From: Blasia pusilla
Lineage: Eukaryota
DNA: 64,000 bases
Direction of reading: 5' to 3'
Assembly: GCA_050084515.1 (NCBI GenBank)
Contig: CM114271.1
Span: 33,480,001 to 33,544,000 of the forward strand
Under the pieces are notes generated by a model. The model saw only the letters and a program-made list of their open reading frames with translations, was not told where the DNA came from and did no database searches. Shown here in pieces: positions 1 through 54,830 of this stretch (position 1 is the stretch's first letter; the number at the start of each line of letters is the position of its first letter). Position numbers and translations under genes: made by a program.

Positions 1-50
1 CATGGATAAGACTGACAAAAATCACAATCTAGAGGATTCATAGGGCAAAC

Positions 51-9700: not shown

Positions 9701-9849
9701 TACTTCGATAGGCTATGGTTGGATTGGATCCCGATCAAGAATGGTGGATTTCGCCCTCTACGTACACATATAGAGAAGAAGGCAAATCAATGGGGTTTTG
9801 TGACCTTCTAGACAGAGAGCTAAGGAAAACTTCCACTAGTCTTGTCAAC

Positions 9850-9851
<2 letters not shown>

Positions 9852-9899
<48 letters not shown>
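9852..9899 (+). repeat. (GA)24 microsatellite
   Basis: Uninterrupted GA dinucleotide run seen directly. Confidence 0.95.
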
Positions 9900-9901
<2 letters not shown>

Positions 9902-11401
9902 CAATGACTTATGGAGTGGTGATGCCTTTTCATTACACTCTTCAACATGCATATGATGAAAGCAAAAATAGTCTAATAGACAAGAAAACATTCATCACGG
10001 TAGTGAAGTTGACACGTAGAGAAGTGGGGGAGCGGAATGAGTGGTAACGGTGATTGGAAGGACGTATCCATGATAAATTTGAAAGTTTTTGGATATATTT
10101 CCCTTACGAGTGAGTCGCGCTAAAGACTAGACTCCACGATTAGGGTGTATAGATTCTTGGGAAAACTTCGAGAGCAAGTTAAAAAAAATGGATATAAAAT
10201 TTAAATTGAATCTTAGTGGCACAAATCGATCATGTAGAGTAATGAGGATGAAGAATATCACTAAGCAAAACTTGTCAAAAATGTGGAGTCACTTGCCATT
10301 ACATTAATATATATCTCTCTTTCTGTTAGTTTTCTACAAGTTAGTTTCTACAAGTTTTCTCCACTACTCTGCTCGCCATGTCAACATTTTCATTTCAATC
10401 TATTGGAGTTGGATTATGTCAAAGGATCTAGAGGTCTTCATCAAGAATAAGCTCTGGAGAAAGATAGTGTAGGAGCTCGATGTTGAAACTTGTTAGCTCC
10501 ATTTTTTACAAAATGAATTCAGCTCAATTACATAGGTTTACCATGAGGAAAAATTATCCACTTTCGAGCGCTTTATGAAGCTTTTAATGAAAGTGTTCCA
10601 ATTACATACTTATGCTTTCTGGACAAGTCTTCCAAGAGTGACAAAAATAACGTCTTTGGGCTCCAACCAAGATTGGAAAAATAACGTCTTTGAGAGTTGA
10701 GAGAGATGAGGCCCATGGATTGGAAGAGAGAGAGAGAGAGAGAGAGGTTCTTAACCTCTTCCATGACGCCCAGACTTGCAGGCTGAAGCCGCCCACTTCC
10801 TATCCTTCCCACCAATGTGATCAATCTCAATGCGCTCCAAACCCACTACATGGGAAATATAAATCCTCGTGCACAAACTATGCTTGGAGATTATCAAGCA
10901 GAATCTGACAACCGATGAAACAAAGCAAAGAAAAAGCTAAATGCCCTAAATGCCCACTCATGGCAAGTGCAGAGAAGAGAAGCACGTTTGCGACATGAAT
11001 GTAGGCTCAAACGAGGACGACGTTGAGCTAAGCGCGTGAATTCTTTATTAAAAAATGGAAGACATGGCCTTTAAGTCCAATACACTAAACCCATGCCGTT
11101 CCTCTAAAAACAACCTTACTGCCCTATACCCCAAATCTCTAATAATCCCTCCCTAAAGAATAAGATTACAAGGTTTACTTACTTAAGTAGTGTTTCATTA
11201 GCTTCCACTTATATAAGTTGCTCCTACTTTCATCCATTCACCCTATATCCAAAAATGTAGCATGTAACATATACTTCTAGAAAAAATAATACAAATATGG
11301 GTTTTTGTTCGAAGTCTAAAACCCTTCCGTGATTGCGAATTGGTATTGGAAATAAGTAATGGTTGCCACCCCGATCCTAATCCCCTCCCCTCTCTAAGTT
11401 T

Positions 11402-11549
11402 ACACTAGTCACTAATTGTGACTAAACCATCTTGTGAGTAATTGCTGAGTCAATTGATTGGTTCCACATTAACTTACTGTAATTCAAATGACTCTTAGAA
11501 ACACCAGTCACAAACATATGGGTTTAAAATGGCCTTTTTCCTACTAATG
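11402..11549 (-). mobile_element. Possible eroded terminus of a CACTA/EnSpm DNA transposon
   Basis: Minus strand reads CATTAGTAGGAAAAAGGCC (close to a CACTAGTAGxAAAA terminus); nearby short inverted subterminal-like motifs GTCACTAA/GTGACTAA. No partner end found. Confidence 0.25.
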
Positions 11550-12381
11550 ACACCATCTACAATAAAAACGGGCCGCGAGCTATAATACGCACAAATCCAC
11601 TCACTTGACATCTTAGAGTTACAACTCAAATGCATTCTTTGGGACGCACACCAAAAAAATGTAGCCAAAATATGTTAATAACAGCAAATACTGCAACTGA
11701 AGAGATGTTTGTAGAAGGGCGAGAGCATTTTCAAATAGGTGGATGTACAAACAAAGGAAAACAGTGCCATATAGGGACAAGCGGATAGGGAGAGCTAGAG
11801 TAATGATGACAACGGGGAAGAAGCAGTATTTCAAGATAATAGCATTTGCAAATAGGAGGATGTAGAGAGGAAGGAAAATGCTACCATATAGAGATAGGGA
11901 AAGTCGTGGCAATGATGATGGTAAGGAGGAAGCACTATTTTCAGGGAGAGGGAAAGTGACATAGGCACCAATGGGTCCTACATCAGAGCAAAGGCATGGT
12001 AAGAGGAGAGGAAGAGAGGAGAGAGGAGGAAGGAAGAGATGAGAGAGGAAACTACCTCCAACCCAAAGAGATACTTTTTTTTAAGAGAGTTTCTTGTGAT
12101 TTGAAGAGAGGAAGGTTTTTTTTGTGAACATTTTTGCAATTTTGTTCTATGTGCTTAGTCACTCCTACAAATTGGTTTTTCCTCTTCCATATTCTGGCAA
12201 CCCGTCTGAATCCGACGGGTTGCAACTTGCACAAAAAAAAAAAAATTTTGAAAAATCCTTGGGATCACAAATGTGGAACAAATTGTATTTTCCATCCAAG
12301 GTCTGAAAAAAATCCATCATCTTCCCTTAGCTGAATAGAGCTCAAGCTCATAGTGAACATTCTGGAAATTCAAAGTAAAAT

Positions 12382-12783: not shown

Positions 12784-13303
12784 TCTCACGATTGTTAGGA
12801 TAGATGGGTGGGATCTAGCAGAGCATCTTCATGAGTAGTGGAAGACAGGCCTAGGAGGTTGAGGATGACGTATTGAGGCCCCGGGAAACTTGAGAGAGCA
12901 GGTTTTCCCTTCACTTCGGCTCATTTGGAGCCATATAGAGAAACTTACTATTTTGGGTAAGTTTCCATATTAGGGATGGTTGACTTTCCAATTTTGGAAG
13001 TGGCCCTTGACCCTCTACAGCAGGTCAAGAGCCAAGGAGGTGACCTACGAGCATAGGTTATCGTTGAGCGGGCTTGGGAGAGGCAAGGGGGTATATCTCC
13101 AAGAGAGAGAGAGAGAGAGCTTGAGAGCTCATTCTCTCTTTGTTGAACCTCTTGGCATAAGGCGGCGGAGCTATGGTCCCTTGCCTTGTGAGTGTAACCC
13201 AAGCCTCTCATTAGAAGAGTGGTTTTGGTTTGACATGAGAGAGAGTGCACACCTTTGAGAGCTATGGTGTGAGATGGTGTAGAGAGAGATTGGATCTTAC
13301 TTT
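12784..13303 (+). repeat. Terminal repeat A1 of element 1 (LTR-like)
   Basis: Direct repeat of 22187-22697; homologous in reverse complement to 25637-26149 and 30334-30845; TATA-like GTATAT at ~13091. Confidence 0.9.
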
Positions 13304-14826
13304 ACAAAGAGAGAATGAGAGAGCTTCATGGGGGATCTCGCTGGTCACTCGTTGTTTTTGCAGGTTGGGGACCGTTTTCCCCATTCAGCGGCTCATGGGA
13401 GTGCTCATCGGAGCAAGGGCTGCTTTGATTGTTCTTTGCATTTGCCGATTTTTCGTGTGGAAGAGTGGCGCGCGGAAGCGGTGCACAATTTTTAATAGGG
13501 ATTGATTGTGGGGGCGGGTTGCCCCATGCCAGTGCTCTCAAGAGCACCATGTAGCATGCTGATTAGTATTTTTACAGGTTTTACATTTTGGTTGGGAGAA
13601 ATCAGCACGGAAGCGCTGCCCAATTTTGTGTAGGAGAAAGAGATATTGAGCTTTACGACAATCCCTGTCAGTTTTTACTGGAATGTTTGATTCTAAATAT
13701 TTTTTGATATTGTTGTAGATCGTGGAGATGTGCACATTGTGAAATAAATAATGTGTAATTTAGAGCTACGAGTAAAAAGTTATGGTCAATCTTGCAAAAT
13801 TACCATTGCTAGGCAATTTTTAGGGTTAATTTGTTCAAACCCTAAACCAGCCGCCACCGTCATAGTCATCGTCAACGGTCCACCATCGATGGTCAACCAT
13901 CACCTTCAACGGTCCACTTTCTGTTATCCACCCTTTGGTTGCCATTTCCGCCATTACGGAGTGGAGGGTCTTCCAAAATGTTCGTTGATTCTCTGACTTG
14001 CGTCGCCACCACGTACTTTGTTTTGGCCGCCACTGTCATCGTAGTTTTGTCATCAACCACTGATGGCAGATGACCTCCGGTTATGGTGTTTGAGTTTTGA
14101 TTTCATGTTGCTATGTTGTGATTGGTTGCCGCTCAACAATGATCGAGAACCATGCCGTGACGTCCGTAGTTGCAACACGCCGCCAATTGCTGCGCCGTGC
14201 CGCTCTTGGCCGCACCACACCATCTCGATCGCGGAACCGCTCCTTCACTAAGGAGCAGAGCGTGTGAATTGCTGATTGAGGAGGGTATGCCGCCGAGTGC
14301 CACACCCCATTCCCGAGTGCGGTGTTGTTTGTAGCCGTTCCGTGCCGCACCGGACCGCTCGACCTGCACCGCACATCGAGGAGGTTGAGCAGCGTCAGTA
14401 CGAGAGGAGTATAACTTGCTGATTGGAAGAGTTGTCTTCACGACCAAGTTGGGGTTGAGATTTGTAGTTGCTGAGGAGAGACGTTGACATGTGTTCAGGT
14501 TACCCATTATGGTCCTTTACCCTGCACGTATGAGGGATTCTGGGATTTGGGTAGTTTATTTGGGGATATTGGGTTGTGTGGATGTTGAGAGCATTATTCA
14601 TGTATATGATTAGGGGACATAGACCTATGTGGGATGTCCAGAGTTCAGGGTAGGTGGTTGATGAGATGATAGCCTGTTCCATTTGTCGCACCACGCCGTG
14701 TGTTGCCGCACGTTACACATCTCGGGGAGGGAGAGTGTAGATCGAGTACCGCATGTTTGGGATGAGAGATTGAGGGATTACTCGCAAGGTTGAGAGTGAT
14801 TGGGTGAGAGAGGCATGAGAGTTATC

Positions 14827-17755: not shown

Positions 17756-18680
17756 GTATTAGATCTCTTTGGAGGGATTAGCACCGGGTTAGCTGTTGTT
17801 TTGCAGGCAAGAGTGCGAGTGCAGCAGTACCTGTATATGGAGAGTGATGATGTTGCAAGGCGCATCTCACTACGACATGTGGCGCAGTTATGCCTACGTT
17901 TTCCTGACTTATTGTCTGCGTCCGCGGTACATGGATACTTGAGTTTCCTACCTAGGGATATTTTGTTGCTAGGGGCGTAAGACTTAGAGCGGGTAGGAAC
18001 CATTGATTTGGTCATTGCCCATTGGCTATGTCAAGGCCAATCGAGTGTTGGACGAGGCAGCGGGTTGGATGACACTCGGTCGAGGTTGTTTTGGGAGATG
18101 TTGAGGGTCTTACGATAGTTGCACGAGCACCACTCTCATTCTCCAGCCTACATTCTGGAGAATGTACCGATCTTAGGAGACTCCAAGTCACAGGTGGTGA
18201 GAAGGTGCGTGCCTGGATCGGCCCAACAGTGTTCTTGGATACGGCAAGTGTAGGTTCTAGAGCCTATCGCCCGCGTCTATGGTGGACCAACTTGGTGCCC
18301 CATGCGGTGTTACGGAGGGCGTATGCGAGAATGGAGCACCCCTCCCATTTGTTAGTGGATTCCATTCTAGATCCGGGTCGTCCATTAAGGCAATGAGGCA
18401 CGATGATTGACCACCCTTAACTGTGGTCAATAGGGTAGGCAGCCGCGGGCAGCCTTGTCCACGTTTGTGAGTTTTCCTGCTTCCTATGCATGCAAGGAGG
18501 CCGGGCCTAGCTTGGATTGGGATGACCAGGTTCAGCGGTTGGTGGAGCCCAACGCCGACGAGAGAGAGCGAGCGATGGGATTTCCCACAGGAGTGACAAC
18601 AATATCGTTAGTGTTAAAGGCATCATGACGCCATGTCTTGGGTCAGGCGATGGACTTGAACTGCTTGACATGGATCCTCA
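17756..18680 (+). pseudogene. Element 1 C5 DNA cytosine methyltransferase domain (DNMT3-like), decayed
   Basis: Motif I VLDLFGGISTG; II YMESD; IV DLVIAHWLCQG (GWPCQ in other copies); VI YILENVP; VIII RPRLWWTN; IX ERERAMGF; X LGQAMDLN, in canonical order. Confidence 0.9.
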
Positions 18681-19019
18681 GCTTGGGAGTGGTTGAGCAG
18701 CGTCGTATGAGATCGCAAGAGATCACAGCGGTTGAGTTTGTGAGCCCCATGCCTATCGAGACGATGGATGCAGTGGTTGGGGGCGAGACTCGAGGAGATC
18801 TACATACTAGGGAAGATCAGGAGAGACATCCTTGGACTTCTTGGGATGTTTTGCACGTACGCCAAGAGATGATAGCCATAGCATTGAGCGTAGTTCTGGT
18901 ACTACACGTGGAGGAGATCAGAGTTTGTAGTTAGCTGCAGGAGAGCGGCCGAATATTTTTGTTCGAGACGGGGTTGCACCATAGCAACCACCGCCTCACG
19001 TCGGAGAGTCCTACCGTAG

Positions 19020-21870
19020 TCATGATGGAGACTTGGGAGCCAGATATGGGCCTTAAGTTGATAAGAGGAGAGCGGCGCCGGATACATCAGTTCCTCAAGA
19101 GTTATAAGAGTTGCTTTGCCTTTAGTATGGAGGATTTGGGTACAATGAAGGGACCGGGGATCCGCATTGAGTTGTCGAGTGATACGCCGATCTTCCGACG
19201 ACCCTACAGGTACAGTGACATGGAGAGGGCTATGATTTAGAGTAGGAGCCAGGACTTGGTCGGAGCAGGACTAGTGGAGATGTCGCATGGGGAGTATGCA
19301 CCTGCCACTATCATGCCCGCCAAGAAGGATGTGCATGGCAACTAGACGGACAGACGGATGTGTGGGGATGACCGACCTATCAATTGGTAGATGAAGCCCG
19401 ATAGGTATGCCATGCCCATCCCTGAGGAGATCTTTGATACGATTGGTCACGCAAAGGTCTTCAGTTCATTGGATTTGCGAGTCGGATACCATCAACTGCC
19501 TATCAGACTGGAGGACAGGCAGAAGACGGTATTTTGGGGCATCGATCCTCACATGAAGGATTGTTTGTACTAGTGGCGGTTCTTACCATTTGGGTTAAAG
19601 AACGCCCGGGCTGAGTTTCAAAGGGTCATGGATAAGATCTTGGCTGGTCTGGATTTTGCTAGGTATTATATTGATGACATCGTAGTCTTTAGCGCCACGG
19701 TTGAGGAGCATGAGCGACATCTAGAGGAGGTGTTTCGACGATTGCAATTACATGAGCTGAAGCTACATCCAGGCAAGTGCAAGTTCTTCTATGACCAAAT
19801 TGAGTACTTGGGTCATACGATATATCAAGGGGCCTTAGTGTTCAACAGAAGAAGGTAGAGGCTATCTCTCGCATTCCACGCCCTACAGATGTGAGCCGTG
19901 TTTGCGCATTCATGGGATTGGCAAACTTCTATCAACGGTACGTCAAGGGATTCAATTCGATTGCAAAGCCGCTACCCTTGCTGAACAAGGTGGATCATGA
20001 GTGGCATTGGGGGGATGAGCATGAGCGAGCATTTCACTTGCTCAAGGACAAGTTGACATCCGCGCCCATCTTGAGGAGACCAATCAGAGGGCGTCCTTTC
20101 TAGTTGCACATAGATTTGAGCATGTTGGGGCTTGGAGCGGTGCTCACCCAACATGATGAAGAGGGTAGAGAGTTCGTGGTGGCTTACGCTAGCCGCTCGA
20201 ACAACGATGTAGAGGTGAAGTACAACTCGTATGAGGGTGAGTGCTTGGCTGAAGTGTGGGCTGTCGCGCATTTCAGGTGTTACTTATTCAAAATCCATTT
20301 ACCATCATCAATGATCATCAACCACTGAAGTGGTTGATGGAGTCTGACAAGCTTATAGGGAAGCTTGCAAGATGGGCTCTGTTGTTGCAGGAGTATGATT
20401 TTCAGGTGATACATAGACCTAGGACGCTCAACCAGGATGCAGATGGGTTGAGTTGTAACCCATTCCCAAGTCTGCGAGATGCGACTGGAGCTCGATGGCA
20501 TGGAGAGAGTGATGATGAGTCAGTGCCCAAATGGCACGCGTCAGGCTATTTAGGCATGTTGGCTATGGAGGGCCAGAGTGTGGAGACTTTGATGGCGATG
20601 TCTAGTGGAGAGTCCTTGGATCCCTAGGCCACTGAGGAGACGATAGGTAGCTGAGATATTCATGATGATGGAGTAGTCTTGGAGTACCTTCGTACTCACA
20701 CCGTTGTGAGCACCGTGGGTGCTAGAGAGCGGGATCGGATCCTACAGCGGGCCAGACGGTTCCGTTGGGAGGGGACTCATGTTTTGAGGGTTTGGGAGGA
20801 TGGTAGAGTACGCGTAGTGCCGCATCTTTTGCAGAGAGCACAACTAGTGCAACATTCCCACGAGGAGTTGGGTCACTTTGGGGTGAAGCGGACGTACAAC
20901 TTGCTCTAGATTCAGTATTGGTGGCGAGGCATGTAGACTGACGTTCAGCATTTTGTTGCCACGTGCATGGTGTGTGATCCGGTCCGAGCATCGTTCAATG
21001 CTCCAACTCCATAATTGCATCCATTACCGATCATGGGCTTAGGGTAAAGATGGAGTTTGGATTTTGTAGGACCTTTGCCTCTAACAAAACATCATAGTTG
21101 TTATGTGTTGGTGATGGTCGAGCACTTCTCGAAGTGGATCGAGTTGGTCACATTTCCTGACAAAGCGACTGAGGGAGTAGTTTATGCCTTCCTTGATAGA
21201 TTTTTGAGTCATTATGGCGCACCGGCTGAGGTGTTGACAGACCAGGGTATCGAGTTTTGCGGTGAGTTCTAGGCCTTGTGCGATCGGGCGTTGATCAACC
21301 ACCGCACGACTTCACGAGATCATCCCGAGGCAGATGGATTAGCGGAGAGAGTTGTGCAGACGATGAAGAGGGCTGAGCTGTTTCGGAGAGTGATGCCCAT
21401 GACGTTCGAGAACTTGGCGATTGGGCAGCATCGGGATACGTCGAGGTATGCAACTATTCGGGGTGGTGGTTATCGACCAACTATCCGGAAGTTTCATCAG
21501 GGAGATTATCTCTACTTGCAGCAGACGGCACCGACGACGTTGGATGTGACTGTAGGGCGCACTATCATGAGAGTGCGTGACGTTTTTCCATCCAGTATTC
21601 TCTTGCTCGAGGGACGCGATGGTATGGTATGGTATGGAAGGACCATATGCGTAAATGTGCGCCATGTCACCTTCCTAACATTGATGGTACAGTAGATCCA
21701 AGCTCACAGTAGTTCTTGCAGGCTTGTGTTGTATGTTGTGTGGTTCTGTTGATGGTGCGGCCACAATGCTAGTCTGTGATGGATGTTCGAGAGGTTGGCA
21801 TATGGCATGTCTGACGCCACCTCTCACTAGGGTTCCTCGGGGACGATGGATGTGTCCCAGATGTACATAA
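19020..21870 (+). pseudogene. Element 1 RT - RNase H - integrase - PHD finger, decayed
   Basis: LDLRVGYHQL, PFGLKNA, YYIDDIVVFS (RT); VVAYASR, DHQPLKWL, NQDADGLS (RNase H); HEELGHFG, DFVGPLP, TDQG, DGLAERVVQT (integrase); CMLC...CDGC...WHMACL...WMCPRC (PHD). Confidence 0.92.
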
Positions 21871-22058
21871 AGGAGATATTAGGTAGGTTTCAATTCCGAC
21901 TTTTTATGTGACATGGATGATAGGAAGGCGACTAAGGATGGGGCCACATGAGCACCCAGCCTTTCCGCTCTTAGCGTCCTAGAGATGTATGTCATGGTAG
22001 GTAGGGATAGATAGCTATCTGGAGTTAGAGGGACCTAACCATCAGCTAGGGGGGAAAT

Positions 22059-22807
22059 TGGAGATATTTTGGTACTTCTCGCCTCTGTGTATGGATGCCA
22101 TGAGTTAGCATGGGATCGTGTGTGTTTGTGTGTGTGTTCGATGACAGCGATGTATATTGTGTAGCGATGTGTATGCACACGACAACTATCAAGATTGTTA
22201 GGATAGATCGATGGGGTCTAGCAGAGCTTCTGCACGAGTAGTGGAGGACACACTCAAGAGGTCGAGGATGACGTGTTGAGGCCTCGGGAAAACGGAGAGA
22301 GCATGTTTCCCCTTCGTTTCGGCTCATTTAGAGACATATAGAGAAACTTACTATTTCGGGTAAGTTTCTATATTGGGGATAGTTGACTTTCCACTTTGGG
22401 AAGTGGCCCTTGACTTGCTACATTAGGTCAAAAGCCAAGGAGGTGACCTGTGAGCATAGGTTACCGTTGAGAGGGCTTGGGAGAGGGAAGGGGGTATACC
22501 TCCAAGAGAGAGAGCTTGAGAGCTCATCCTCTCTTTGTTCAACCTCTTGTCATAAGGCGGCGGAGCTATGGTCCCTTGCCTTGTGAGTGTAACCCAAGCC
22601 TCTCATTAGGAAAGTGGGTTTGGTTTGACATGAGAGAGAGTGCATACCTTGAGAGCTATTGTGTGAGATGGTGTAGAGAGAGATTGGATCTTACTTTATT
22701 GGAGATGTTTTGGTACTTCTCCCCTCTGTGTATGGATGCCATGAGTTAGCATGGGATGTGTGTGTTTGTGTGTGTGTTGGATGATAGCGATGTGTATGTG
22801 CACGAAA
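22059..22807 (+). repeat. 3' repeat block B1-A2-B2 of element 1
   Basis: B1 22059-22184 and B2 22700-22807 are direct repeats (TGGAGAT.TTTTGGTACTTCTC...GATGTGTATG.GCACGA) flanking A2; preceded by the PPT AGGGGGGAAA. Confidence 0.9.
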
Positions 22808-25508
22808 AAACTCCTTGATACCTCACACCACTCCGTGTCACTCCATTATCACTTCTCGTACTACCGCGTTCTTCCGAACCCTGAAAGAACACCGTGATGA
22901 TTACCCTCTCTCACCCGCTCAAGCACTCTGACTCACCAAGAGTCTCCCACACTCCTCACTAGCTCACCTACGCTTATGCTAATCCCGTTATAATACACCC
23001 GGCCTCACGCACACTCAACACTCGGACTCACCATAAGCCTCCCACTAACTCACATAAACTATTGACACTCTCGAGTCATACACGCGACCCGTACTTGGCA
23101 ACCCACATATATACACCAACATGCTACACATGAAAGGAGTCTACACTCATCACCATCGCTACACCCATCTACCACTAGCAACTACCCAAGACCCAACACT
23201 CTTAGTCACACAAGATAAGTGCAGGAAAAGGGACTCAAATGGATAACCTAAACATGCCCGCCAACCTATGGCAACATCAACACTCACTCCTCCATGTGGT
23301 GCGGCAACCTATGCGGCACGGCACTCTCCTCGACCAACACGTCAAACCTCCCGTCAATAGATGCAGACTACCCATCGACATCAACACCAATGTCTCCACC
23401 ACTAATCCTCCATCACCAACTGTCGGCACGAATCACAATCTCACCCCAATCAAGGCTAAAAGTATCACATCCCTATATCCTGAGTCGTGGAACACCTCCC
23501 ACTCCCAACTCTGAAAACTCCAACACACACCCGCTCAACCATGTACATTTTTGACCAATTACCTGCTCAACCACGCTGATCCCAACCTCATAACCATAGC
23601 CCTATTAAGTTCGCCCTTCCAACTCCGTAACCAGCTTCATCGGGGCCTATGGTGACTCGACCCGACAACTTACCTACGCAGCAGCCTCCCTTCTTAGGTC
23701 CACGCTAGCCCAACTTTATGGATCATCCGAAGCCTTTCCTTCTCCTCCCGGCATGCCTCCCTATGAGGGTGCGACGTAGTCCAACTCACTCCCGTGCGCC
23801 TGACTTCACATCCACGACTCCAATTCAGCCCCGCACAACTCTCTCCTTCCCCAACTTCCGCCTTGACCTTATGAGTTCACATGGCTCGATAGACAGACCT
23901 CTTTGGTCTACGTCAAGGTCGGGGGAGTTTTTTCGTGACAACCGGTACATTTCCGGTCTCTACAAACCCGAGCGGCAATTTTTGAAGTTTTCTTCATTCC
24001 AGCTGGCTAAACAGGTACGAATGCAAAGGACACCCTCTCTGAACCTCCGGTTTTTGGCCGGTAAATGACGACGTGAATGGAAATTCTCAAATTCTTCCGG
24101 CCAGCTCAACACGTAACCCCGGTTCTCCCCGGACATTGATCTACGTCGTACTCAATGTGGGCACGCCGCCCTATGCGACGCGTCTCCCCTCTCTGCCAGC
24201 CCCATTTCCTTGGAGCCATAATGGCTCCTCCCGTACCTCCTTTGTTCCTAGAGCTCCGGGCTCCTTCCTTCCTCCGAATCTGGCCAAGCCCTCCCTCGCT
24301 TACCGCTCTCTCTAACATGCCCATCCTTGTACATACCTCAATGCACGCCTTCCTATGTGGAGGTCTCTCGTCCTCCTATTCCTCAGTTGTGCGTGGCTCC
24401 CTTGCCCGCCAGCTGATTCCGTTGCACGCAGCCTTGCTCCATAGCTGCCGTGCATGCAACCCTGACCTTAACCCCCGAAATATTTCATTACTTCTCCCGG
24501 TGTCTATCAGCATTGGTCCGCATCCCTATGCGAGACTCTACATCTCCTTGCGTGAACCCACGGCCCGCGTCCTTGCCCAACCGCTTAGACCTAAACCTCC
24601 CACATAAACTGCACAACCTAAATCTAGCCGACCTAGCCTCCTTTAACCTAGATGCCTTTACTTGATAGCCCCTCAAAGGCTACAAGCCCTCAATTGTGCT
24701 TCCCTCTCAACACTCTTGCTATGCGTCATTGTATCAACGCTCCAACACTTTGCGCTACACCCGAGTGCTCTTGCCCGACCCCCACTTTGCTGTTGTTCCT
24801 CGGCACCCGCACTAGCAAGATCTGAGAAAAACAAACAGCGCTTCCACGCCCAATATCCCAAACAAAAGAATTTTGAAAATATAAACGCCAACCCGCGTCT
24901 CCAGGGGCTAACGACCGAGGCAAATCGCTTGCCTACCTGCAAACAAGGAATTCCCACCTGGCCCTTCACATCTTTCTCTAAGCCTATTCCACCTCTAAAC
25001 TTGTTTATTGAGGGGGAGAATTTGACTATAAACCAACAGACATTGCCTAGTGCAAGATTAAGAGAGATCCTAGATTCTTTAGTTAAATCTATCAATCCAT
25101 GGTCAGGAGGAGTAGATATTAAGTTTATTGATACTAGTTATAACTCAAGTAAGATGTTAGAGCCATCCACTTCTAAATAGTGACTTTGTAGATCAAATAA
25201 AGTCACACATCTTGTTCATAGAATCATAAATAAGGGATTCCTTGTAATGCATCATGTATATATGATGACTTCCCTTCAAGAACAAGAACCAAGTTTTTTT
25301 AAGAAGCTACATGTAAGGTAAAATATATTGAAGCATTGGAGGAAGAGCTTAGTGCATTAAGACATCTACAGACTTGGGAATTGGTTGATATATATTCCGA
25401 TAAGGAAGCCATTGATTGTAGATGGATTTACAAAGTCAAGCGCAATCAACAAGGAAAAATGAATAAATACAAACCTAGATTAGTAGCCAAGGACTATGCT
25501 CAATTATA

Positions 25509-28500
25509 TGTTGTGCGCATACACATTGTTACACAACATACATCGTTGTCACCCAACACACACACAACCACGCACGATCCCATGCTAACTCATAGCATCC
25601 AAACAACGAGACAAAAAGTACTAAAATATCTCCAAGAAAGTAAGATCCAATCTCTCTCTACACCATCTCACACCATAGCTCTCAAAGGTGTGCACTCTCT
25701 CTCATGTCAAACCAAACCCACTCTCCTAATGAGAGGCTTGGGTTACACTCACAAGGCAAGGGACCATAGCTCCGCCGCCTCATGCCAAGAGGTTCAACAA
25801 AGAGAGAATGAGCTCTCAAGCTCTCTCTCCTTGAGGTATACCCCTCCCCTCACCCAAGCTCTCTCCATGGTAACCAATTCTCCCGAGTCACCTCCTTGAC
25901 TCTTGATCCAATGTAGGAGGTCAAGGGCCACTTACCAAAAATACAAAGTCGATCATATACTCAAAATGGTACTTACCTAAAATAGTGAGTTCCTCAATAT
26001 GGCTCCAAATGAGCCGAAACGAAGGGGAAACCTGCTCTCTCATGTTTCCCGAGGCCTCAGCAGATCATCCTCGACCTAATGAGCGTGTCAGCCACTACTC
26101 ACGAAGGCGCTCTACTAGATCTCACTGATCTATCCTAAAAGACGTGATAGTTGTCGTGCGCATACACATCGCTACACAACATACATCATTATCACCGAAC
26201 ACACACACAAACACGAACGATCCCATGCTCACTCATGGCATCCAAACAACGAGACAAGAAGTACTAAAATATCTCCACTTTCCCCCTTAGCTCGTGGTTA
26301 GGTCCCTCTAACTCTGTAGGATCCGATCCCGCTCTCTAGCATCTACGGTGCTCGCAACGTTGCCAGTACAAAGGTACTCCAAAACTACTCCATCATCATC
26401 AATATCTCGGCCACTTGTTATCTCCTCACTCGCCTCGGGATCCAAGGACTCTCCACTAGACCTCGCCATCAAAGTCTCCACACTCTGGCTCTCCATAGCC
26501 AACATGCCTAAATAGGCTGACACGTGCCATCTTGGCACCGACTCCTCATCACTCTCTCCATGCCATCGAGCTCCAGTCGCGTCTCATTGACTCGGGCATG
26601 GGTTACGACTCAACCCATCTGCATCCTGGTTGAGCGTCCCACTTCTATGTACCATCTGAAAATCATACTCGTGCAACAACAGAGCCCATCTCGCAAGCTT
26701 CTCTGTAAGCTTGTCGGACTCCATCAACCACTACAGTGGTTGATGATCAGCAATGATGGTTAAGGGATTGCCAAATAAGTAACACCTAAAATGTGCGACA
26801 GCCCACACCGCAGCCAAGCACTCACCCTCATACGAGCTATACTTCGCCTCTGCAACATTGTTTGAGCGGCTAGCGTAAGCCACCACGAACTCTCTACCCT
26901 CATCATCATGTTGGGTGAGCACCGCTCCAAGCCCCAACATGCTCCAATCTGTGTGCAACTCGAAAGGACGCCCCCTGATGGGTCTCCTCAAGGTGGGCGC
27001 GGATGTCAACTTGTCCTTGAGCAATTGAAATGCTCGCTCATGCTCATCCCCCAGTGCCACTCGTGATCCACCTTGGTCAGCAAGGTCAGTGGCTTTGCAA
27101 TCAAACTGAATCCCTCGACGTACCGCCGATAGAAGTTCGCCAATCCCATGAATGCGCAAACACGACTCATATCTATAGGGCGTGGAATGCGTGAGATGGC
27201 CTCTACCTTCATCTATTGAATACTAAGGCCCCCTGGGTATATCGTATGACCCAAGTACTCAATTTGGTTGTAGAAGAACTTGCACTTGCCTAGATGTAGC
27301 TTCAACCCATGTAATTGCAATCGTTGAAACACCTCCTCTAGATGTTGCACATGCTCCTCAGCCGTGGCGCTAAAGACTACGATGTCATCAATATAATACC
27401 TAGCAAAATCCAGACCAGCCAAGATCTTATCCATGATCCTCTGAAACTCAACCCGGGCGTTCTTTAACCCAAATGGTAAGAACCGCCATTGGTACAAACA
27501 ACCCTTTCCGTGAGGATCAATGCCCCAAAATACCGTCTTCTGCCTGTCCTCCAGTCTGATAGGCAGCTGATGGTATCCGGCTCGCGAATCCAATGAATTG
27601 AAAACCTTTGCATGACCAATTGCATCAAAGATCTCCTTTAGGGATGGGCATGGCATACCTATCGGACTTCGTCTGCCGATTGATAGGTCGGTAATCCCTA
27701 CACATCCGCCCGTCCGTCCAGTTGCCATGCACATCCATCTTGGCGGGCATGACAGTGGCAAATGCATACTCCCCATGCGACATCTCCACTAGTCCTACTC
27801 CGACCCAGTCCTGGCTCCTACTCTAAATCATAGCCCTCTCCATATCACTATACCTGTAGGGTTGTCGGAAGATCGGCGTATCACTCGACAACTCAATGCG
27901 GATCCACGGTCCCTTCACCGTACCCAAATCCTCCATACTAAAGGCAAAGCAGCTCCTATAACTCCTCAGGAACTGATGTATCCGGCGCCGCTCTCCTCTT
28001 GTCAACTTAGGGCCCATATCTGGCTCCCAAGTCTCCATCGTGACTACAATAGGACTCTTCGGCGCGTATATCCGTGGTTGCTATGGTGCAACCCCGTCTC
28101 GAACATCAACACTCGACCGCTCTCTTGCAACCAACCGCAAACTCTGATCTCCTCCACCTGCAGTGCCTGGAACCACGCTCGATGTTGTGGCTATCATCTC
28201 CTGGCGTACCTACAAAACATCCCAAGAAGTCCAAGGGTGTCTCTCTCGATCTCCCATGGTGTGGCGATCTCCTCGGGTCTCGCCCCCAGCCACTGCCTCC
28301 ACCGTCTCGGTAGGAATGGGGCTCACCAACGCAACTGCTGTGATCTATCGCGATCTCATACAACGCTGCTTAGCCACTCCCAAGCTGAAGATCCATGTGA
28401 AGCAGTTCAGGTCCATCGCCTGACCCAAGACATGGCATCGTGAAGCCTCTGATAATGACGGTACTCCCGTCACTCATGTGGGAAATCCCATCGCCCGCTC

Positions 28501-30845
28501 TCTCTCGTCGTCATTCGGCTCCACCAACCTCTGAACCTGGTCATCCCAAACCAAGCCAGGATCGGCCTCCTTGTATCCATAGGAAGCGGGAAAACTCACA
28601 AACGTGGGAAAGGCTACCCGCGGCTTGCCTACCCTGTTGACCATAGTCAAGTTTGGTCAATCATCGTTCCTCATTGCTTGTGAGCGATGACCTAGATCTA
28701 GAATGGAATCCACTAACAAATGGGAGGGGCGCTCCACTCTCGCAAACGCCCTCCGTAACACCGCATGGGGCACCAAGTTGGTCCTGCATAGACGCGGGCG
28801 ATTGGCTCTAGAACCTACACTCGCCACATCCAAGAACACTGCTGGGCCGATCTAGGCACGCACCTGATGATCACTCGTCACCACCCGTGACCTGGAGTCT
28901 CCTAAGATCGGCACATTCTCTAGAATGTAGGGTGGAGAACCATAGTGGTGCTCCTGCAACCGCCGTAAGACGCTCAACATCTCCCAAAACAACCTGGACC
29001 AAGTGTTAGCCAAGCCACTACCTTGTCCAACACTCGATTGGCCCTAACATGGCCAACCAGCAATGACCAAATCAATGGTGCCTAACCGGTCTAAGTCCTG
29101 CACCCCCAACAACGAAATATCCCTCGGTAGGGAACTCTGGTACCCCTGTACCGCGCACGCAGAAAATAAGTCAGGAAAACGTAGGCGTAACTTTGCCACA
29201 TGTCGTAGTGAGACACACCTCGCAACATCATCACTCTCCATATACAAATACTGCTGCACTCGCAATCCGCTCCACAATGACAATGCGGCTCCGCGATCGA
29301 GACGGTGCGGTGCGGCCACAAGCGGCACGGCGCGGAAATCGGTGGTGCGTTATGGCTACAGGCGTCACCGCACGATACTTGATCATTGTCGAGCGGCTAC
29401 CAATCACAACATAGCAACATGAAATCAAAACTCAAACACCATAACCGGAGGTCATCTACCATCACTGGTTGATGACGAAACTGCGATGACGGTGGTGGCC
29501 AAACCAAAGTACGTGGTGGTGGCACAAGTCGGAGAATCAATGGTGGTCGTGGAAGACCCTCCACTTCGTAATGGCGGCAATGGCAACCAAAGGGTGGACA
29601 ATGGCGAATGCAGCTCTGAGCAACGTTGTGCAACGACAACGGCCGACTGTGGCGGTGGTCGGTGGACCGTTGATGGTGATGGTTGACCGTTGATGGTGAC
29701 GATGAACCGTTGATGGTGACGGTTGACAGTTGACCGGTGATGGTGACTATGACGACGACGGCCGCCGCCGACGTGGCGGCTGGTTTAGGGTTTGAACAAT
29801 TTAACCCTAAAAATTGCCTAGCAATGGCAATTTTGCAAGATTGACCATAACTTTTTACTCGCAACTCCAAATTGTATACCGTTTGTTGCACAATGTTCAC
29901 AACTTCACGATCTACAATAAAGTTAAAAAATATTTGGAATTGGACATTCCAGTAAAAACTGACAAGGACTCTTATAAATCCCAATGTCTCTTTCTACTAC
30001 ACAAAATTTGGCAGCGCTTCCGCGCTAATTTCTCCCAACCAAAATGTAAAACCTGTAAAAATACAAATCAGCAAGCTACATGGTGCTCTTGAGAGCACCG
30101 GCATGGGGCAACCCGCCCCCATGATCAATCCCTATCAAAATTGGACAGCGCTTCCGCGGGCCATTCTTCCACACGAAAAATCAGCAAATGCAAAGAACAA
30201 TCAAAGCAACCCTTGCTCCGGTGAGCACTCCCATGAGCCGTTGAACAAGAAACACGGTCCCCAACCTGCAGAAACAACAAGTGACTAGCGAGCTCCCCCA
30301 TGAAGCTCTCTCACTCTCTCATTCTCTCTTTCTAAAGTAAGATCCAATCTCTCTCTACACCATCTCACACCATAGCTCTCAAAGGTGTGCATTCTCTCTC
30401 GTGTCAAACCAAACCCACTCTCCTAATGAGAGGCTTGGGTTACACTCACAAGGCAAGGGACCATAGCTCGCCGCCTCATGCCAAGAGGTTCAACAAAGAG
30501 AGAATGAGCTCTCAAGCTCTCTCTCCTTGAGGTATACCCCTCCCCTCACCCAAGCTCTCTCCATGGTAACTTATTCTCCCAAGTCACCTCCTTGATTCTT
30601 GACCCAATGTAGGAGGTCAAGGGCCACTTACCAAAAATATAAATTCGATCATATACTCAAAATGGTACTTACCTAAAATAGTGAGTTCCTCAATATGGCT
30701 CCAAATGAGCCGAAACGAAGGGGAAACCTGCTCTCTCATGTTTCCCGAGGCCTCAGCAGGTCATCCTCGACCTAATGAGCATGTCCGCCACTACTCACCA
30801 AGGCGCTCTACTACATCTCACCGATCTATTCTAAAAGACGTGACA
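25509..30845 (-). mobile_element. Element 2: internally deleted copy of the element 1 family with intact TG...CA ends and 4-bp TSD (TATA)
   Basis: A1 30334-30845 (starts TGTCACG); leader ~29270-30330; deletion removes gag, protease and DNMT motif I; DNMT remainder ~28390-29265; RT-RNase H ~26600-28040; deletion removes integrase and PHD at ~26315; PPT ~26279-26288; B1 26152-26277; A2 25637-26149; B2 25509-25634 (ends GCACAACA). TATA at 25505-25508 and 30846-30849. Confidence 0.93.
28390..29265 (-). pseudogene. Element 2 DNMT domain (motifs II-X), decayed
   Basis: YLYMESD, RDISLLG, DLVIAGWPC*G, YILENVP, RPRLCRTN, ERERAMGF, LGQAMDLN. Confidence 0.87.
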
Positions 30846-31773: not shown

Positions 31774-34700
31774 AACATAGAGCGAGAGTATCCACAAACA
31801 CAAGTGTACCACAACTCGCCCTCCTAACTGGCAGTTAGGTCCCTCTAACTCCCAGGTAGTCCTATACATCTACTACATGCTATACACCTTTTTGGGTGCC
31901 CGAATCAGAAGGCCGGGTGCTAGGTTGCCCCATCGTTAGTCGCACATCTGTAATCCATATCATCGTATATGTTGTATGGACGTATGGATGTTGTTCCTAC
32001 TGGAAGGTGGGTTTGTCCATGATACGTGGAGTCAAACACATCATGTGCCAACCCCTAGAACACCGATCACACACCAACATACGGGCTGCGTTACCAGCAG
32101 ACCCACACAACATGCACCTCAAGCTAGCACGTATCATGGCTAAGCTTGGGTCAACAGTACCATCCACATTTGGAAGATGACATGGCGCACAATTACAACT
32201 CCATCACGACCCTCCAACATGAGAACTCCAGAAGCTAACATCTCGCGCACTCGTAAAATAGTGCGGCCTGCCGTCACATCCAACGTTGTCGGTGCAATCT
32301 GCTGCAAATAGACATAGTCCCCCACATGGAACCTACGAATCGATGGTCGATAACCTCCACCCCAAATGGTTGCATACCGCAAAGTATCCCTATGTTGAGC
32401 AATGGCAAGATTCTCAAAGGATGTTGGCATAACTCTCCGAAAGAGCTCTGCCCGCTGAGAACACATTCTCATCCACATCTCTAGGTCATCAAGTTTCACC
32501 ACCTCACTAGACTCCCGACCAATTGCTGCTGGCAAGTCTGGATCTCGGCCGTATAACAGAAAATAAGGTGAGAAGGAAGCCAAGGATGCTTGGCGACTGA
32601 ACCTATACCCCATGGCTAACCATGGCAATCGAATATCCGGTCTCCAAGATGCCCCTTCTGAGGCTATACTTGCGCAATGCCCTCTTCACTGTCTGAACCA
32701 CACGCTCAGCCAAACCATCCGCCTCTGGATGATCTCGAGACGTGGTCCGATGATCAATCAACGCCTTGTCACACAAGACCTGAAACTCACCCTGAAACTC
32801 TGTACCCTGGTCGGTCAACACTTCAGCTGATGCACCAAAATGACTAAGCACTCTATCAAGAAACGCATACGCCGTTCTCTCACTTGCCTTGTCCGGTAAT
32901 GCCGCCAACTCAATCCACTTGGAGAAGTGCTCCACCATCACCAACACATATTGATGATGTCGTACAGTCAACGGTAACGGTCCTGCAAAGTCCACACTCC
33001 AACGATAACCCAACCCCATAATAGGCAAGGGGTGTAATTGTGGTGTAGGGGCATTGAATGATGCCCTCATCCGGTCACAAACCATACAACGTGACACCAA
33101 TTGCTGCACCTGAGTATGCATGCCACGCCACCAATTCTGGCCAAGGAGTAAGCTATACGTACGCTTTATCCCAAAATGTCCCAACTCCTCATGGGCATGT
33201 CGCACAATGCGCTCTCTCTGAGCCAAATGTGGCACTACTTGTACTCTACCATCCTCCCACACGCGGAGAATATGTGTTCCCTCCAATCGATACCTCTTAG
33301 CACGTTGAAGAACACGGTCTCGCTCCTTGGCACTCACTATGCCTGGCACCCTACTGGTCCGTAGGAACTCCAACACCAACGCATCATCATGAATATCACG
33401 CTTATCTGTACCACCATCTCCAACCTTAGGATCTAAAGGCTGGCCATCTACCCTCTGACTAGAGTAAGATATCATGTGATCCTCCATACTAGAGTCCACC
33501 CCTAACCAACATAAAAAGGCGGATGCATGCCAACCTGGCACCATCTCCTCATCAACCTCGTCGTGCCATCTAGCCCCGATTGTATCCTCTTGGCTAGTAC
33601 ATGGGTTCCTACTCAACCCATCAAGCATCAAGGTTGGCAACTCCAGGTCTATGTACCACCCGGAAGTCATACTCTGTAAGATAAGCGCCCACCATGCAAG
33701 CTTCCTGTAAGCTTGTCGACTCCATCAACCACTTGAGCGGCTAGTGATCGAGTAACAAGGGTAAACGTGTGCCAAACAAGTAACATCTAAAGTGTGCCAC
33801 ACCCCACACTCTTGCCAAGCACTCTCCCTCATATGAATTATAGCGCGACTCCGCTGCATTATTCGAACGACTTGCATAGGCCACCACAAACTCCATGTGC
33901 TCATCATCATGTTATGTCAACACCGCTCCAAGTCCTAACCTACTCCAATCAGTGTGTAACTGAAATGGGCGCCCTCTGATAGGTCTCCTCAAGATAGGCG
34001 CCGCCACCAACTGGGCCTTAAGCTCCACAAAAGCTCTCTCCTGATCATCTCCCCAATGCCACTCTTGATCTGATTTCAGAAATTGGTTCAAAGGCTTTGC
34101 CATAGCACTAAATCCCTTCACATACCTCCGATAGTAGTTCGCCAATCCCATGAATGCTCGAACTCTACTCACATCTACCGGACGCGGAATAAGTGCAATA
34201 GCCTCCACCTTTGCTTGCTGAACTCCCAAACCACCTAGATAGATCACATGACCCAAGTACTCAACATCCTCATGGAAGAACTTACACTTTCCTAGATGCA
34301 AACGTAGACTATGAGCTTTCAACCGCTCAAACACCATCTGCAAATGTATATGATGCTCCTCCACCGTGTTACTGAACACCAAGATATCATCAATGTAACA
34401 CCAAACAAAATCCAACCCTACTAGGATCCTGTCCATCACTCTCTGAAACTTGGCAGGTGCATTCTTCAACCCAAAGGGCAAGAATTTCCACTCGTACAAA
34501 CAATCCTTGCCATGAGAGTTGACACCCCAAAATGATGTCTTGGCCTTGTCACTCTCCCAAATCGGCAATTGATGGTATCCTGCCCGAAGATCCAAAGTAT
34601 TGAAAATCTTTGCTTGTCTCACCACATCAAAGATCTCCTCAGGTGTAGGCATGGCATACCTATCGGCCTTGGTTTGCCGATTGATAGGACGGTAATCTTC

Positions 34701-37700
34701 ATACATTCGCCTATCCGTGTAGTTGCCATGCATATCCTTTTTAGCAGGCATGACAGTGGCTGATGCATACTCTCCATGCGACAACTCCACTAATCCAGCC
34801 TCCAAAAGGTCCAACGTCCTACTCTCAATCAGGTCCCTCTCCATATCATTATATCGGTAGGGACGACGGAAGATTGGCGTATCACTAGCCAAATCAATCC
34901 GTATACCGGGTCCAACCAGAGAACCTAACTCCTTCATGCTAAAGGCAAAACAACTCCTATAAGCACGTAGGAACTCTGTCAAGCGTCGTTTCTCACCTCC
35001 CGTAAGCTTGGGCCCAAGTAATGGCTCCCAAGTCTTCTCCACTGGCACACTAGAGGGAGAGGACGATGCCATTGGCTGCTACACAACCCCCTCACAAGAT
35101 GGTACACTCTTAGCTACACCATCATCTGAGCAAATAACTCCTCCACCAGTGGAACATTCTCCAGAATGTAAGGTGGAGCACGTGCTTGATGAACCTGAAG
35201 ATGTCGTAACACCCGTAACATCTCCCAAAACAATCGAGACCTAAGGTCGTGTAATCCCTCACCACGACCTGCACGTGTATGACCCTGACATGGCCATCCA
35301 GCAATCACCAAATCCACAAGACCAACCCTCTCAAGGTCCTGCGCCCCCAACAATGCAATGTGCGACGGCAAAGCACGTTGGTACCCACGAATAGCTGATG
35401 GCGGCAACAACTCAGGATATCTCCGCATCAACTGACCAATATGTCGGGATGAGACTCTCTGGGCCATCTCATCTCGCTCCACATACACGTATCTCTGCAC
35501 AGGAATACCGACCTACAACACTTCATCCAAACCAGTGCTAATCGCACCAAAGAGATCTAACACACAAATGCCCTCCAGCGCAGATACTGCCATACAATGG
35601 GTGTAGTATCCAAAGGGGATAACCCAACTGGACCAGAAGTAGGAGTCCGCCATGGGGTCTCCTCTTCCTCGTGAGGTATAACAGCCTCACACCAAGCCTC
35701 CTGCACTAGGCGATCACCCTCCTGCCGTAGTGCACCGCCTGAACTCCAAAGTGGCACATCCAATGATGAGGATGTCACGACTGCAAAAATAGGGACCTCC
35801 TCTACCTCCTCATGCGCAAGAGAATCCATAGCAGAAACATTACCCTCCAAACAGTCTCCTGGCCAAGTGACTACTCCACTAAAACCAGCCACAGATGCTA
35901 ACACTTTGTTGGGGAAGACCCTCTGGTCGAGCCCCAAAATAAATCTCACAGAACTTGGCTCATACGTCCATCCCGGACTGCCAACCAGGTCTATAAGACA
36001 CTGTCTCGATCCGATAATCCATCTGAAAACCCATCGGGTACAATCTGCTCCTCCAACTAGTACATCATACGACTCGGTGATGTGACTACCGTGAGATACT
36101 CCCAACCGGGAGCTATCATCACATGATCTGGTCTCAACATGCAGAAAACTTCTCCCGTGTCATGAATTGAGACCTATCATTGGCTCCTCCAAGTGATGTT
36201 TGAATCTGGAATGGGCAAGGCTCAAGCTCGACCTCCGAATACCCAAACCAATACATGCCACCTTTCCCAACATCAAGGTTGGGCACCGTGAGTCTAACAA
36301 GACTCTATCTGGTCTATACACCTGTCCTGTAGGACTCACCAATCGGAAGATCCTACTCCGGTTGTCCAACATACATACACCAGGTGTAAGCCTCTCACGA
36401 TCAATTGCTGGCCGGGCTGGTAATGCATCCATCTTCACCGCTGCTGCCTGGCAAGTAGCACTGGTACTCAATGCTACACCTGACATAGAGGGTCGCTCAA
36501 CCGCAACACCCTCATCCACCTCAACACATGTAGCAGTAACACCCCCACGTTCGCACAACGTGGCTGCTAGCTGAAATACAGGAGCTAAGTCAACTCCTAA
36601 AGCCATCAGCTCCGTGGCCGAAAACAATGGAGATCCCAACATTGAAGTTGCCATCCCCAATACTGCACTGGATGCTGTATCTGTGTCTACTACACGCGAT
36701 GTAGGATGTAGATGCCTCAGTCCCCACTGTCGGCTCAATAGGCTGCGTAGGAACCATGGATGGAGTCCTAAGCACCTCAGACAACAAGAATGAATGGGGA
36801 AGCCTAGCCTGCCTCCCAGCCTCACCCCTCAGTGGGTCCAACTCACAAAGAGCACCAAGTGGCTCTGACGCTCGAGTGGCTCCTCTCATAACTGCAGCTG
36901 ATGCCTCAACCTGTGATGCACTCGCCATATAAGAGAGATCATCCCCTCCATAAGAGGTGGAAGCCCCTGCTCCCGAACCTGATCTATGTTGGATATCAGC
37001 CATATGAGCCAACTTCTGCTCCAATTGCTCAATCGGCAACCATAGCGACGACTGTCGTAGTGGTAGGGGTAGCCACCGTAGGCTCTCCAACCACTGGTCC
37101 ACCTCTACCACCCCTACCACCTCTACCACGTCGGCCTCTCAGAGCTACTCCACCACGGCCGCGGCCTGATCTCAACTCTGGATGAAGATCAAAGCAACGC
37201 TCTCGAGGATGACCTGGTCTCCCGCAATGATCACACTAAGTTGGGGCTGATTGAGGCCCATCCTCCAAAGTTCGTCTCCCATCCTCTTGGGGACAAAACT
37301 TCCTAACATGATCACCTCCACATGTCCAACATAACTGTCCTTGCTACGGGGCAACAAATAAAGGCAATGGTCTCTGCGCAAGTGTCCCTCTAGGACCTGA
37401 CTGAGGTCGAGTGTACCCCCCACAACTCCCACTACTACTACCACCACCACTACTACGAGACTGTGAGGTGGGCTGGTGAACACGAGAAGTAGTAGTTGTA
37501 TCCCTACTAAATGCGGATGTCACCACTCTCTCCTTTACCATGTTAAGCTCAATCTTCTTAGATAGAGCAAACACATGGGTCAATGTGGATGAATCATCAC
37601 TCATAAGAGTAGCATCAGATACCCTACGGCGCAAATCTCTGTCCAAGATCCCATACCAAAACTGGACTGTCTGATCCTCAATCACACCCTGGGTAACTGA

Positions 37701-40439: not shown

Positions 40440-40560
40440 ACAGTCAGAAGCCCATAAATGTTTCAATTCACCATATCTATCGAAATTGGTGTTAAATTAT
40501 TTAGGTGTTAGAGATATTGATATGAGCTTGAGGGGGAGTATTGGACAATTATGCTTGTTT
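40440..40560 (+). mobile_element. Probable Copia 3' end (end of pol, PPT, start of 3' LTR)
   Basis: LGVRDIDMSLRG followed by the Copia-type PPT GCTTGAGGGGGAG and TATTGG (likely a mutated TGTTGG LTR start). Confidence 0.5.
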
Positions 40561-54811: not shown

Positions 54812-54830
54812 ATATATATATATATATATA
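54812..54830. repeat. (AT)n microsatellite
   Basis: ATATATATATATATATATA seen directly. Confidence 0.8.

Follow-up and report, generated by a model that had tools for sequence, protein, structure and literature searches.

The stretch of DNA analysed here, referred to throughout as the window, comprises 64,000 nucleotides of the Blasia pusilla genome (GCA_050084515.1, contig CM114271.1, positions 33,480,001 to 33,544,000 of the forward strand) and harbours four related elements of 5-10 kb each. The elements carry split repeats, which are arranged in the order A1, internal part, B1, junction J, A2 and B2, with an A1 of 480-520 bp and a B1 of 128-140 bp. The left end of an inserted copy consists of A only and the right end of B-J-A-B, and thus the element lacks two whole direct long terminal repeats (LTRs) at its ends. 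Element 1 lies on the plus strand. Its A1 (12784-13303) forms the left end, in which the initial TG has decayed to TC, and contains, downstream of a TATA-like word, a putative self-primer (13128-13143) that would be the 5' end of the predicted RNA. This stretch is complementary at 16 of 16 positions to the primer-binding site (13304-13319), which adjoins A1 directly; the pairing is present in both the minimum-energy and the centroid predicted folds (z -3.9). A broken pol region (17756-21864), located by tblastn of database protein P0014, holds a methyltransferase, a reverse transcriptase (RT), an RNase H, an integrase and a PHD-like finger, in that order. It is followed by a purine tract with a run of G (22048-22056), which sits directly before B1, a position that is identical across all families. 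Repeat comparison delimited B1 (22057-22184, with GACA at its end), A2 (22187-22697) and B2 (22698-22807), the last of which is the right end and has the A2/B2 joint as its left boundary. Junction J (22181-22190) reads GACA, spacer AC (22185-22186) and TATC, a decayed TGTC. The flanks of element 1 display no target duplication (CCCG versus AAAC) and its A1 and A2 are 0.887 identical, which is low against a median of 0.948 (23 copies); on these two grounds the element may be a recombinant of two copies.

The other three elements have their coding parts on the minus strand. Element 2 (25509-30845) is an internally deleted copy with a perfect TATA duplication at both sides, and consists of A1 (30845-30334), B1 (about 26279-26152), spacer AC (26151-26150), A2 (26149-25637) and B2 (25636-25509). 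A short GACCGTTGA-type tandem repeat occupies 29645-29751 in its 5' leader and is found also in the leader of element 1; the stretch 27793-28443 (minus strand) is listed as an open frame of 216 residues, the translation of which nevertheless contains four stops. Element 4 (56682-64000), in which A1 starts 1,693 bases outside the window, is flanked by a perfect AATG duplication and comprises B1 (57445-57302), spacer AT (57301-57300), A2 (57299-56820) and B2 (56819-56682). Element 3 belongs to a third family and is rearranged within 31774-39610: its internal part (31774-38444, minus strand), with an RT frame (35078-33912), an integrase frame (33724-32603) and a 43-base stub of B1 (31816-31774), has at its 5' side a stretch (39336-39610) in the opposite, plus, orientation that comprises the 3' portion of A and a complete B, both of this third family. 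The CA end at 39610, which an earlier note on this DNA had taken for a real outer end, lies on the plus strand, opposite to the coding part of element 3, and is not the normal right end of that element. Copies are often found inside or against copies of the same lineage, for example at a B start or beside a purine tract (L006, L036, L155, L018). Six open frames within 1-12000, 22900-25400 and 40000-56000 of the window had no Pfam match.

The frames of these elements, which are broken, encode gag-like and protease-like portions, a cytosine methyltransferase, RT, RNase H, a PHD-like finger and a DDE integrase (PF17921 and PF00665) that carries an HHCC finger. The order of RT, RNase H and integrase is that of Ty3/Gypsy LTR retrotransposons, and the nearest solved relatives of the integrase, by alignment, are the Ty3 and foamy virus enzymes. 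The catalytic residues, among them the second D and the E (D755 and E790 in the first row of the alignment), are invariant in 19 aligned relatives; in the integrase at 32603-33724 (minus strand) these two residues are separated by 34 residues rather than 35, which leaves a gap of one residue in the alignment with the integrases of Ty3 and foamy virus. The methyltransferase lies ahead of RT in pol in all four elements (tblastn of P0014, PF00145) and its translation displays the PC and ENV motifs. The finger is of the PHD type (PF00628) in the nearest relatives and not a chromodomain (PF00385). The nearest named relatives of the RT among best hits are in liverworts, and then in a moss and charophyte algae; a Klebsormidium nitens protein is 47% identical to the RT frame found here. 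As judged by sequence, the lineage is one of Gypsy-type retrotransposons that carry a DNA methyltransferase.

The junction between B1 and A2 had been described in the earlier note as an att-like CA-nn-TG word conserved across families. The strings on which that description was based are indeed present at 22175-22193 (plus strand), 26161-26143 and 57311-57293 (both minus strand), as are those at the outer ends at 30845, 25509 and 56682. The word itself is not literally present in the three examples, which read CA-AC-TA, CA-AC-TA and CG-AT-TG and are decayed forms, but it holds genome-wide as GACA-nn-TGTC. Across the whole 390-Mb genome (26 contigs) the pattern TGYGCAYGACA-N(0-12)-TGTCAC has 1,476 exact matches, against about two expected from the base composition of the window, whereas the reversed pattern has none. 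Among the first 100 matches listed, 95 have a 2-nt spacer (AC 30, GT 25, GC 23, AT 11 and other 6, by hand count). Long and zero spacers were considered as true variants and discarded, as three of the five odd cases in these 100 are B ends followed by a chance TGTCAC; the other two are 1-nt indels. Similarly, 27 of 30 loci with a purine tract and B1, which were chosen without regard to J, run into J-A, the spacer being 2 nt in 26 and 1 nt in one. Thus spacer length does not vary at random, and the conservation of the junction across families holds for more than a thousand examples, from two to three families, in which the spacer is fixed at 2 nt. Conservation of the end of B was also noted earlier; the end is shared between families, but the common portion is about 36-40 nt in length and not the proposed 20 or so. 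The B ends of L230, L239, L248, L280 and L283 contain two or three tandem units ending in CACGACA, reminiscent of repeated enzyme-binding sites near transposon ends, and in families 1 and 2 a word of the GCGATGT type is repeated at the same place in the B end.

The spacer is a purine followed by a pyrimidine in 1,330 of the 1,476 matches, whereas the dinucleotides flanking inserted copies have this form in just 4/25 and 5/25, which indicates that the spacer is not derived from the flanks. J is, in addition, crossed by sense-strand RNA reads. The junction is thus a fixed, encoded and transcribed part of the element. With a GC spacer, J is a perfect 10-bp palindrome containing two symmetric CHG sites. 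Changes in the spacer are nearly all transitions, with A at position 1 in 0.31-0.68 and T at position 2 in 0.24-0.35 of the samples, compared with a mean CHG decay of 0.13-0.16 in the repeats; it should be emphasized that these samples were selected by an intact CA and TG, which favours changed spacers. Decay alone, starting from a GC spacer, was rejected as a full explanation: it accounts for position 2, but poorly for position 1 in families 1 and 2. As the letters at position 1 vary beyond mean CHG decay even in young copies, the length of the spacer seems to matter and its letters do not. In a tree of 56 of the 82 family-1/2 rows (the rest lacking the anchor) neither the spacer nor the A2/B2 joint carried signal (26 changes versus 26.0 when shuffled, and 14 versus 14.5), while a subfamily control did (3 changes versus 18.8); the tree is star-like and weak, and neither shows nor excludes inheritance.

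The junction is not confined to Blasia. A J-like word occurs in 28 of 80 metagenome loci with a related pol (44-79% identical to the query protein; some loci counted twice), and its spacer is purine-pyrimidine in 26. Self-comparison, carried out for 52 of the 80, revealed B-A-B in 24 (about 18 distinct) and none in the other 28. The whole layout is present in six metagenome contigs, with a target duplication that, by eye, is perfect in three, has one mismatch in two and is lacking in one. Viral contigs gave 154 pattern matches and no relative of the element.

The outer ends of the element correspond to the two halves of J. In 25 copies in which both ends were located the 2-nt spacer is absent from the termini, and a 4-bp target duplication directly abuts the TG and the CA, being perfect in 19/25 and having at most one mismatch in 22/25; the remaining 3/25 have no duplication. 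Both the loss of the spacer at the outer ends and the coincidence of duplication-flanked termini with J, as the earlier note had it, are therefore borne out in this set. Perfect duplications of 3, 5 or 6 bp were found in 0/25, and none of 600 mismatched flank pairs was perfect. The set leaves out copies in which A1 was not located within about 11 kb (13/29 extended family-1 copies and 2/10 others). In all three one-mismatch duplications (L005, L023, L024) the mismatch falls on the fourth base, which adjoins the left TG, but these cases are too few to judge. TG..CA ends combined with 4-bp duplications are an integrase signature, and agree with the TG..CA termini and 4-6 bp duplications of Ty3/Gypsy elements. 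The view that J is a pair of abutted integrase-type ends, with which the outer termini coincide, is thus supported by the sequences of these copies.

The priming sites of the element are also recognizable. The 14-17 bases that follow A1 are complementary to a segment within A, at a distance of 28-29 bases from the TATA word (28 nt in 62 copies and 29 nt in 23). Of 82 family-1/2 A copies, 55 match the site exactly and 77 with at most two mismatches; of 27 family-4 copies, 21 match exactly and 25 with at most one mismatch. The primer/site pairs are family-specific, with no cross matches between families, and metagenome relatives provide two more pairs of other sequence (17 bp and 10-13 bp). Self-primer and site thus covary over four families, and in sequence terms this is the signature of Tf1-type self-priming. 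At the other side of the internal part, every family has a G-rich purine tract that abuts B1 exactly. Stranded RNA reads run in the sense direction across B1-J-A2 and thin out near the end of A2. At the predicted start these reads, which are fragmented and mostly only 85-95% like the copy used, displayed neither a start peak nor a rise in depth. The RNA index listed no holder of the stretch searched. After the A end, L190 (1521-1553) and L206 (1521-1581) carry an inverted copy, of 33 and 62 bases, respectively, of the self-primer plus 17-46 further upstream bases. These copies were not counted as evidence, as a copied long primer and a DNA-level fold-back would both yield them. L190 also contains, inside repeat A (about 945-1445), a 500-base piece that by eye reads like the methyltransferase region of the element.

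The A2/B2 joint behaves differently from J. A pattern for A/B joints in families 1 and 2 has 1,105 matches genome-wide; among the first 100, 31 differ in length from a plain join (hand count) and 21 contain a single extra A. In 28 joints genome-wide, two of which probably represent one duplicated locus, a ladder of 2 to 23 primer-site bases precedes an intact B start, a feature that is partly built in, as the search pattern required it. Three of these 28 were checked as lying at A2/B2 and one more is a solo A-B, while the others could sit in deleted A1/B1. At L194 the whole 16-base primer site is kept, and at L104 a purine-tract remnant and filler are found, both in the A2 position behind a J; in about 20 family-4 joints examined no primer-site base was retained. 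The templated boundaries vary far less than the A2/B2 joint: a length change was found near the A1/internal boundary in 2/35, and the distance from the anchor to B1 is 24 in 69, 23 in eight and 26 in one of 78 copies. Several by-product forms accompany the standard layout. Left ends of the form flank-B-J-A-internal, which is expected of uncut cDNA, are present at L002 (whole B) and L212 (part of B). Copies of the form A1-internal-B1 without J account for 3/30 of the purine-tract-B1 loci, and 3/4 such copies followed up have a 4-bp duplication; they could arise through use of both junctions, from a one-repeat circle or by later recombination between B1 and B2. Solo A-B remnants occur at L191, L203 and L209. 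At L075 B-J-A continues into the internal leader, followed by six repeats of part of the leader and then B; at L089 B-J-A likewise runs into the leader, and L121 has a doubled 3' end, B-J-A-B-B-J-A-B. The copies are all old, with A1/A2 identities of 0.86-0.99.

The reading that we favour, with a probability of about 0.68, is that J serves as the integrase site of a Ty3/Gypsy-type retrotransposon with a circularly permuted LTR, the primer-side J being cut and the free cDNA ends joined. The RNA would start inside A1, 28-29 nt from the TATA word, and run through B1-J-A2. Its first 14-17 bases would pair with the site after A1 to prime the minus strand, as in Tf1, and the purine tract would prime the plus strand at the start of B. 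In LTR reverse transcription the two priming sites define the limits of the repeat. The positions of the primer site and purine tract, read by this established scheme, imply that the repeat should begin where B starts and run to the end of A, and that the integrase ends would be buried within it. Ordinary LTR-type reverse transcription would then produce a linear cDNA, (B-J-A)-internal-(B-J-A), the physical ends of which are not the integrase ends. In the left J, on the primer side, the integrase would nick both strands after CA, the spacer would be dropped, and both halves of J would be joined to the target with a 4-bp stagger. The joining of the free cDNA ends, the A end and the B start, would either precede insertion, yielding a circle, or follow it, as the sealing of a break in the chromosome. 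The inserted layout requires that the A end be joined to the B start, and a variable A2/B2 joint with remnants of the primer site or purine tract is thus to be expected. The joint would be made anew in each round, and the right J would be left inside for the next. The preference for the left J might reflect its becoming double-stranded first or its being nearer to a DNA end (about 130 versus 510 bp), which is a guess; a methyl mark is another candidate.

It could be argued that the A/B joint is formed not by host end joining but by reverse transcriptase jumping from the A end onto the B start within the particle, the integrase then acting on a nicked circle or a partial dimer. Terminal addition and jumping fit the single extra A in 21 of 100 joints and the intact B start of the ladder, and the extended J-A-internal leader-B form at L075 and the repeated B-J-A-B ends at L121 could be explained in the same way. 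The intact B start, however, is in part a product of the search pattern, and the filler and purine-tract remnant at L104, trimmed B starts, trimmed A ends and the apparent microhomology joins in metagenome relatives resemble repair joins. Jumping is unlikely to account for the joint.

Less likely still is that a closed circle is the obligatory intermediate and that its junctions are used without preference, as in IS3 and IS911. Such a route is consistent with CA..TG ends that abut across a short spacer of fixed length, which insertion removes, with the cleavage of 2-LTR circle junctions by foamy virus integrase (PMC1180852) and with the A1-internal-B1 copies with duplications, which fit a one-repeat circle. 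A circle with one junction, however, would yield only A-internal-B, with loss of J. To rebuild the layout, a circle would need two identical junctions, and random cutting would thus leave as many permuted A-B-J-A-internal-B copies as copies of the observed form. The permuted arrangement has three pattern matches genome-wide, all of which are chance TGTCA words in the flanks, compared with 580 for purine tract-B-J; it was found at 0/62 junction loci and at 0/32 primer-site-bearing A ends with a readable start. The earlier note had proposed that the junction is an integrase substrate used in the manner of an IS3 circle junction. The first part of this proposal is supported by the abutted ends, the DDE integrase and the identity of the outer ends with the halves of J. 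The second is not borne out in the form proposed, as the spacer is not host flank, J is encoded and present in RNA reads, and permuted copies number 0 against 580.

An explanation that we regard as similarly improbable assigns the choice of junction to the cytosine methyltransferase that the element encodes: the enzyme would mark one of the two and thereby determine the site of cutting, and the purine-pyrimidine spacer would be the methylation scar of a palindromic GACAGCTGTC. The two symmetric CHG sites in the GC-spacer J, the excess of transitions in the spacer over mean CHG decay and the retention of the methyltransferase (PF00145) in many relatives are consistent with this. However, methylation of CHG sites by the host after insertion would produce identical changes, the samples selected by CA and TG over-represent changed spacers, and PF00145 is unlisted in the Pfam lists of many close relatives. 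Far more doubtful is a route resembling that of Ngaro and PAT, in which split repeats drive strand jumps to a circle that is integrated by a tyrosine recombinase, with the DDE integrase as a passenger. The A1-B1-A2-B2 order is shared with those elements (PMC4157794, PMC6681497), but no tyrosine recombinase family was detected in 13 open frames of the window, in one copy over its first 3 kb (three forward frames) or among the Pfam families listed for 120 relatives, and the TG..CA ends, 4-bp duplications and invariant catalytic residues point to the DDE enzyme. Finally, although the region is old and nested and element 1 lacks a duplication, it is scarcely conceivable that post-insertion rearrangement of ordinary LTR elements, nesting of copies or faulty assembly generated more than a thousand junctions that, in two to three families, have a fixed spacer of 2 nt, as well as duplications that span the whole layout and the recurrence of that layout in unrelated assemblies.

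LTR retrotransposons and retroviruses integrate via the ends of linear cDNA; for retroviruses there has been debate over whether the integrase truly uses circle junctions as substrates. Here a natural and abundant lineage, with about 1,500 exact junctions in a 390-Mb genome and relatives in other hosts, seems to use an abutted junction as its normal site. A wider proposition, for and against which we see the case as evenly balanced, is that this old green-plant lineage, with matches in bryophytes and charophytes, may represent a third way of integrating: copying would be self-primed and of the LTR type, the integrase would ignore the cDNA ends and act like an insertion-sequence transposase on one of two identical pre-built internal junctions, and the true ends would be sealed by end joining, possibly after insertion. 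If this is correct, raggedness of the cDNA ends would not affect integration, the junction to be cut might be marked by the methyltransferase of the element, and the combination of self-priming, a permuted repeat and joined ends might likewise account for the split repeats seen in Ngaro and PAT. The favoured mechanism offers a testable account of how split direct repeats originate and are rebuilt, and J provides a defined short substrate with which to test internal cleavage by a retroelement integrase. With respect to annotation, programs that search for paired LTRs should miss such elements or misplace their bounds.

The closest known system is KnitGypsy-Dnmt3 of Klebsormidium nitens, which has Gypsy domains and a cytosine methyltransferase in pol, and for which a figure legend records DIRS-like repeats in the order A-coding-B-A-B (Fig. 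4 of de Mendoza et al. 2018, PMC5890265). Similar to the Blasia elements, its methyltransferase precedes RT and its repeats follow the same order; the main-text passages on this element give no ends, junction, target duplication, priming or mechanism. In the open-access literature searched the name KnitGypsy-Dnmt3 appears only in that paper, and in the relevant passage of a 2026 preprint (10.64898/2026.05.21.726589) streptophyte Gypsy-DNMT3 is named just in passing. Within the open-access literature, as distinct from Repbase reports, subscription papers and the KnitGypsy-Dnmt3 supplement, no mechanism for or account of J was found. The layout was thus already known, once, from that figure legend, while neither the junction nor the proposed insertion route was found described in the same literature.

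In the Tf1/sushi group and plant Tcn1 the sequence that follows the 5' repeat can pair with part of that repeat, just downstream of a TATA word, and no tRNA is needed (PMC4600332, PMC6317226). The Blasia elements likewise have a primer site complementary to their own predicted 5' RNA, but Tf1, sushi and Tcn1 elements possess two whole LTRs, the outer ends of which are the integrase ends, and mostly a chromodomain integrase, in contrast with the permuted repeat, internal ends and PHD-like finger (PF00628 in relatives) described here. Ngaro, PAT, TOC1, VIPER and TATE share the A1-coding-B1-A2-B2 order and leave solo A-B remnants (SIRE in trypanosomes; PMC4157794, PMC6681497), but utilize a tyrosine recombinase where the Blasia elements have a DDE integrase, TG..CA ends and 4-bp duplications. 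Troyka elements, which are also LTR retroelements with unusual ends, were considered and set aside; they have CG..CG ends, 3-bp duplications and two ordinary LTRs and are restricted to animals (PMC12440569), whereas the ends here are TG..CA and 0/25 duplications are perfect at 3 bp.

With respect to the cutting step, the IS3 family (IS2, IS911) has two ends that abut across a short spacer; a DDE enzyme cuts them after CA and joins both to the target, with loss of the spacer (PMC3299598). In that DNA-only pathway the junction is remade in each round, in IS2 by the transposase and with host DNA as the spacer (PMC3299598); here, in contrast, it is encoded, transcribed and reverse-transcribed and would be present twice in the predicted intermediate. 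Foamy virus integrase provides a precedent for internal cleavage of a palindromic LTR-LTR junction by a retroelement enzyme (PMC1180852). The foamy virus junction, however, is generated by the joining of true cDNA ends, whereas in the Blasia elements the joined cDNA ends (A/B) would not be the integrase site and J would be. Apart from the KnitGypsy lineage, each group compared has a defining trait that these elements lack. In the reading favoured here, the Blasia elements would combine the copying of a self-primed Gypsy element with a cutting step like that at an IS3 junction, and the repeat order of Ngaro and PAT without their recombinase.
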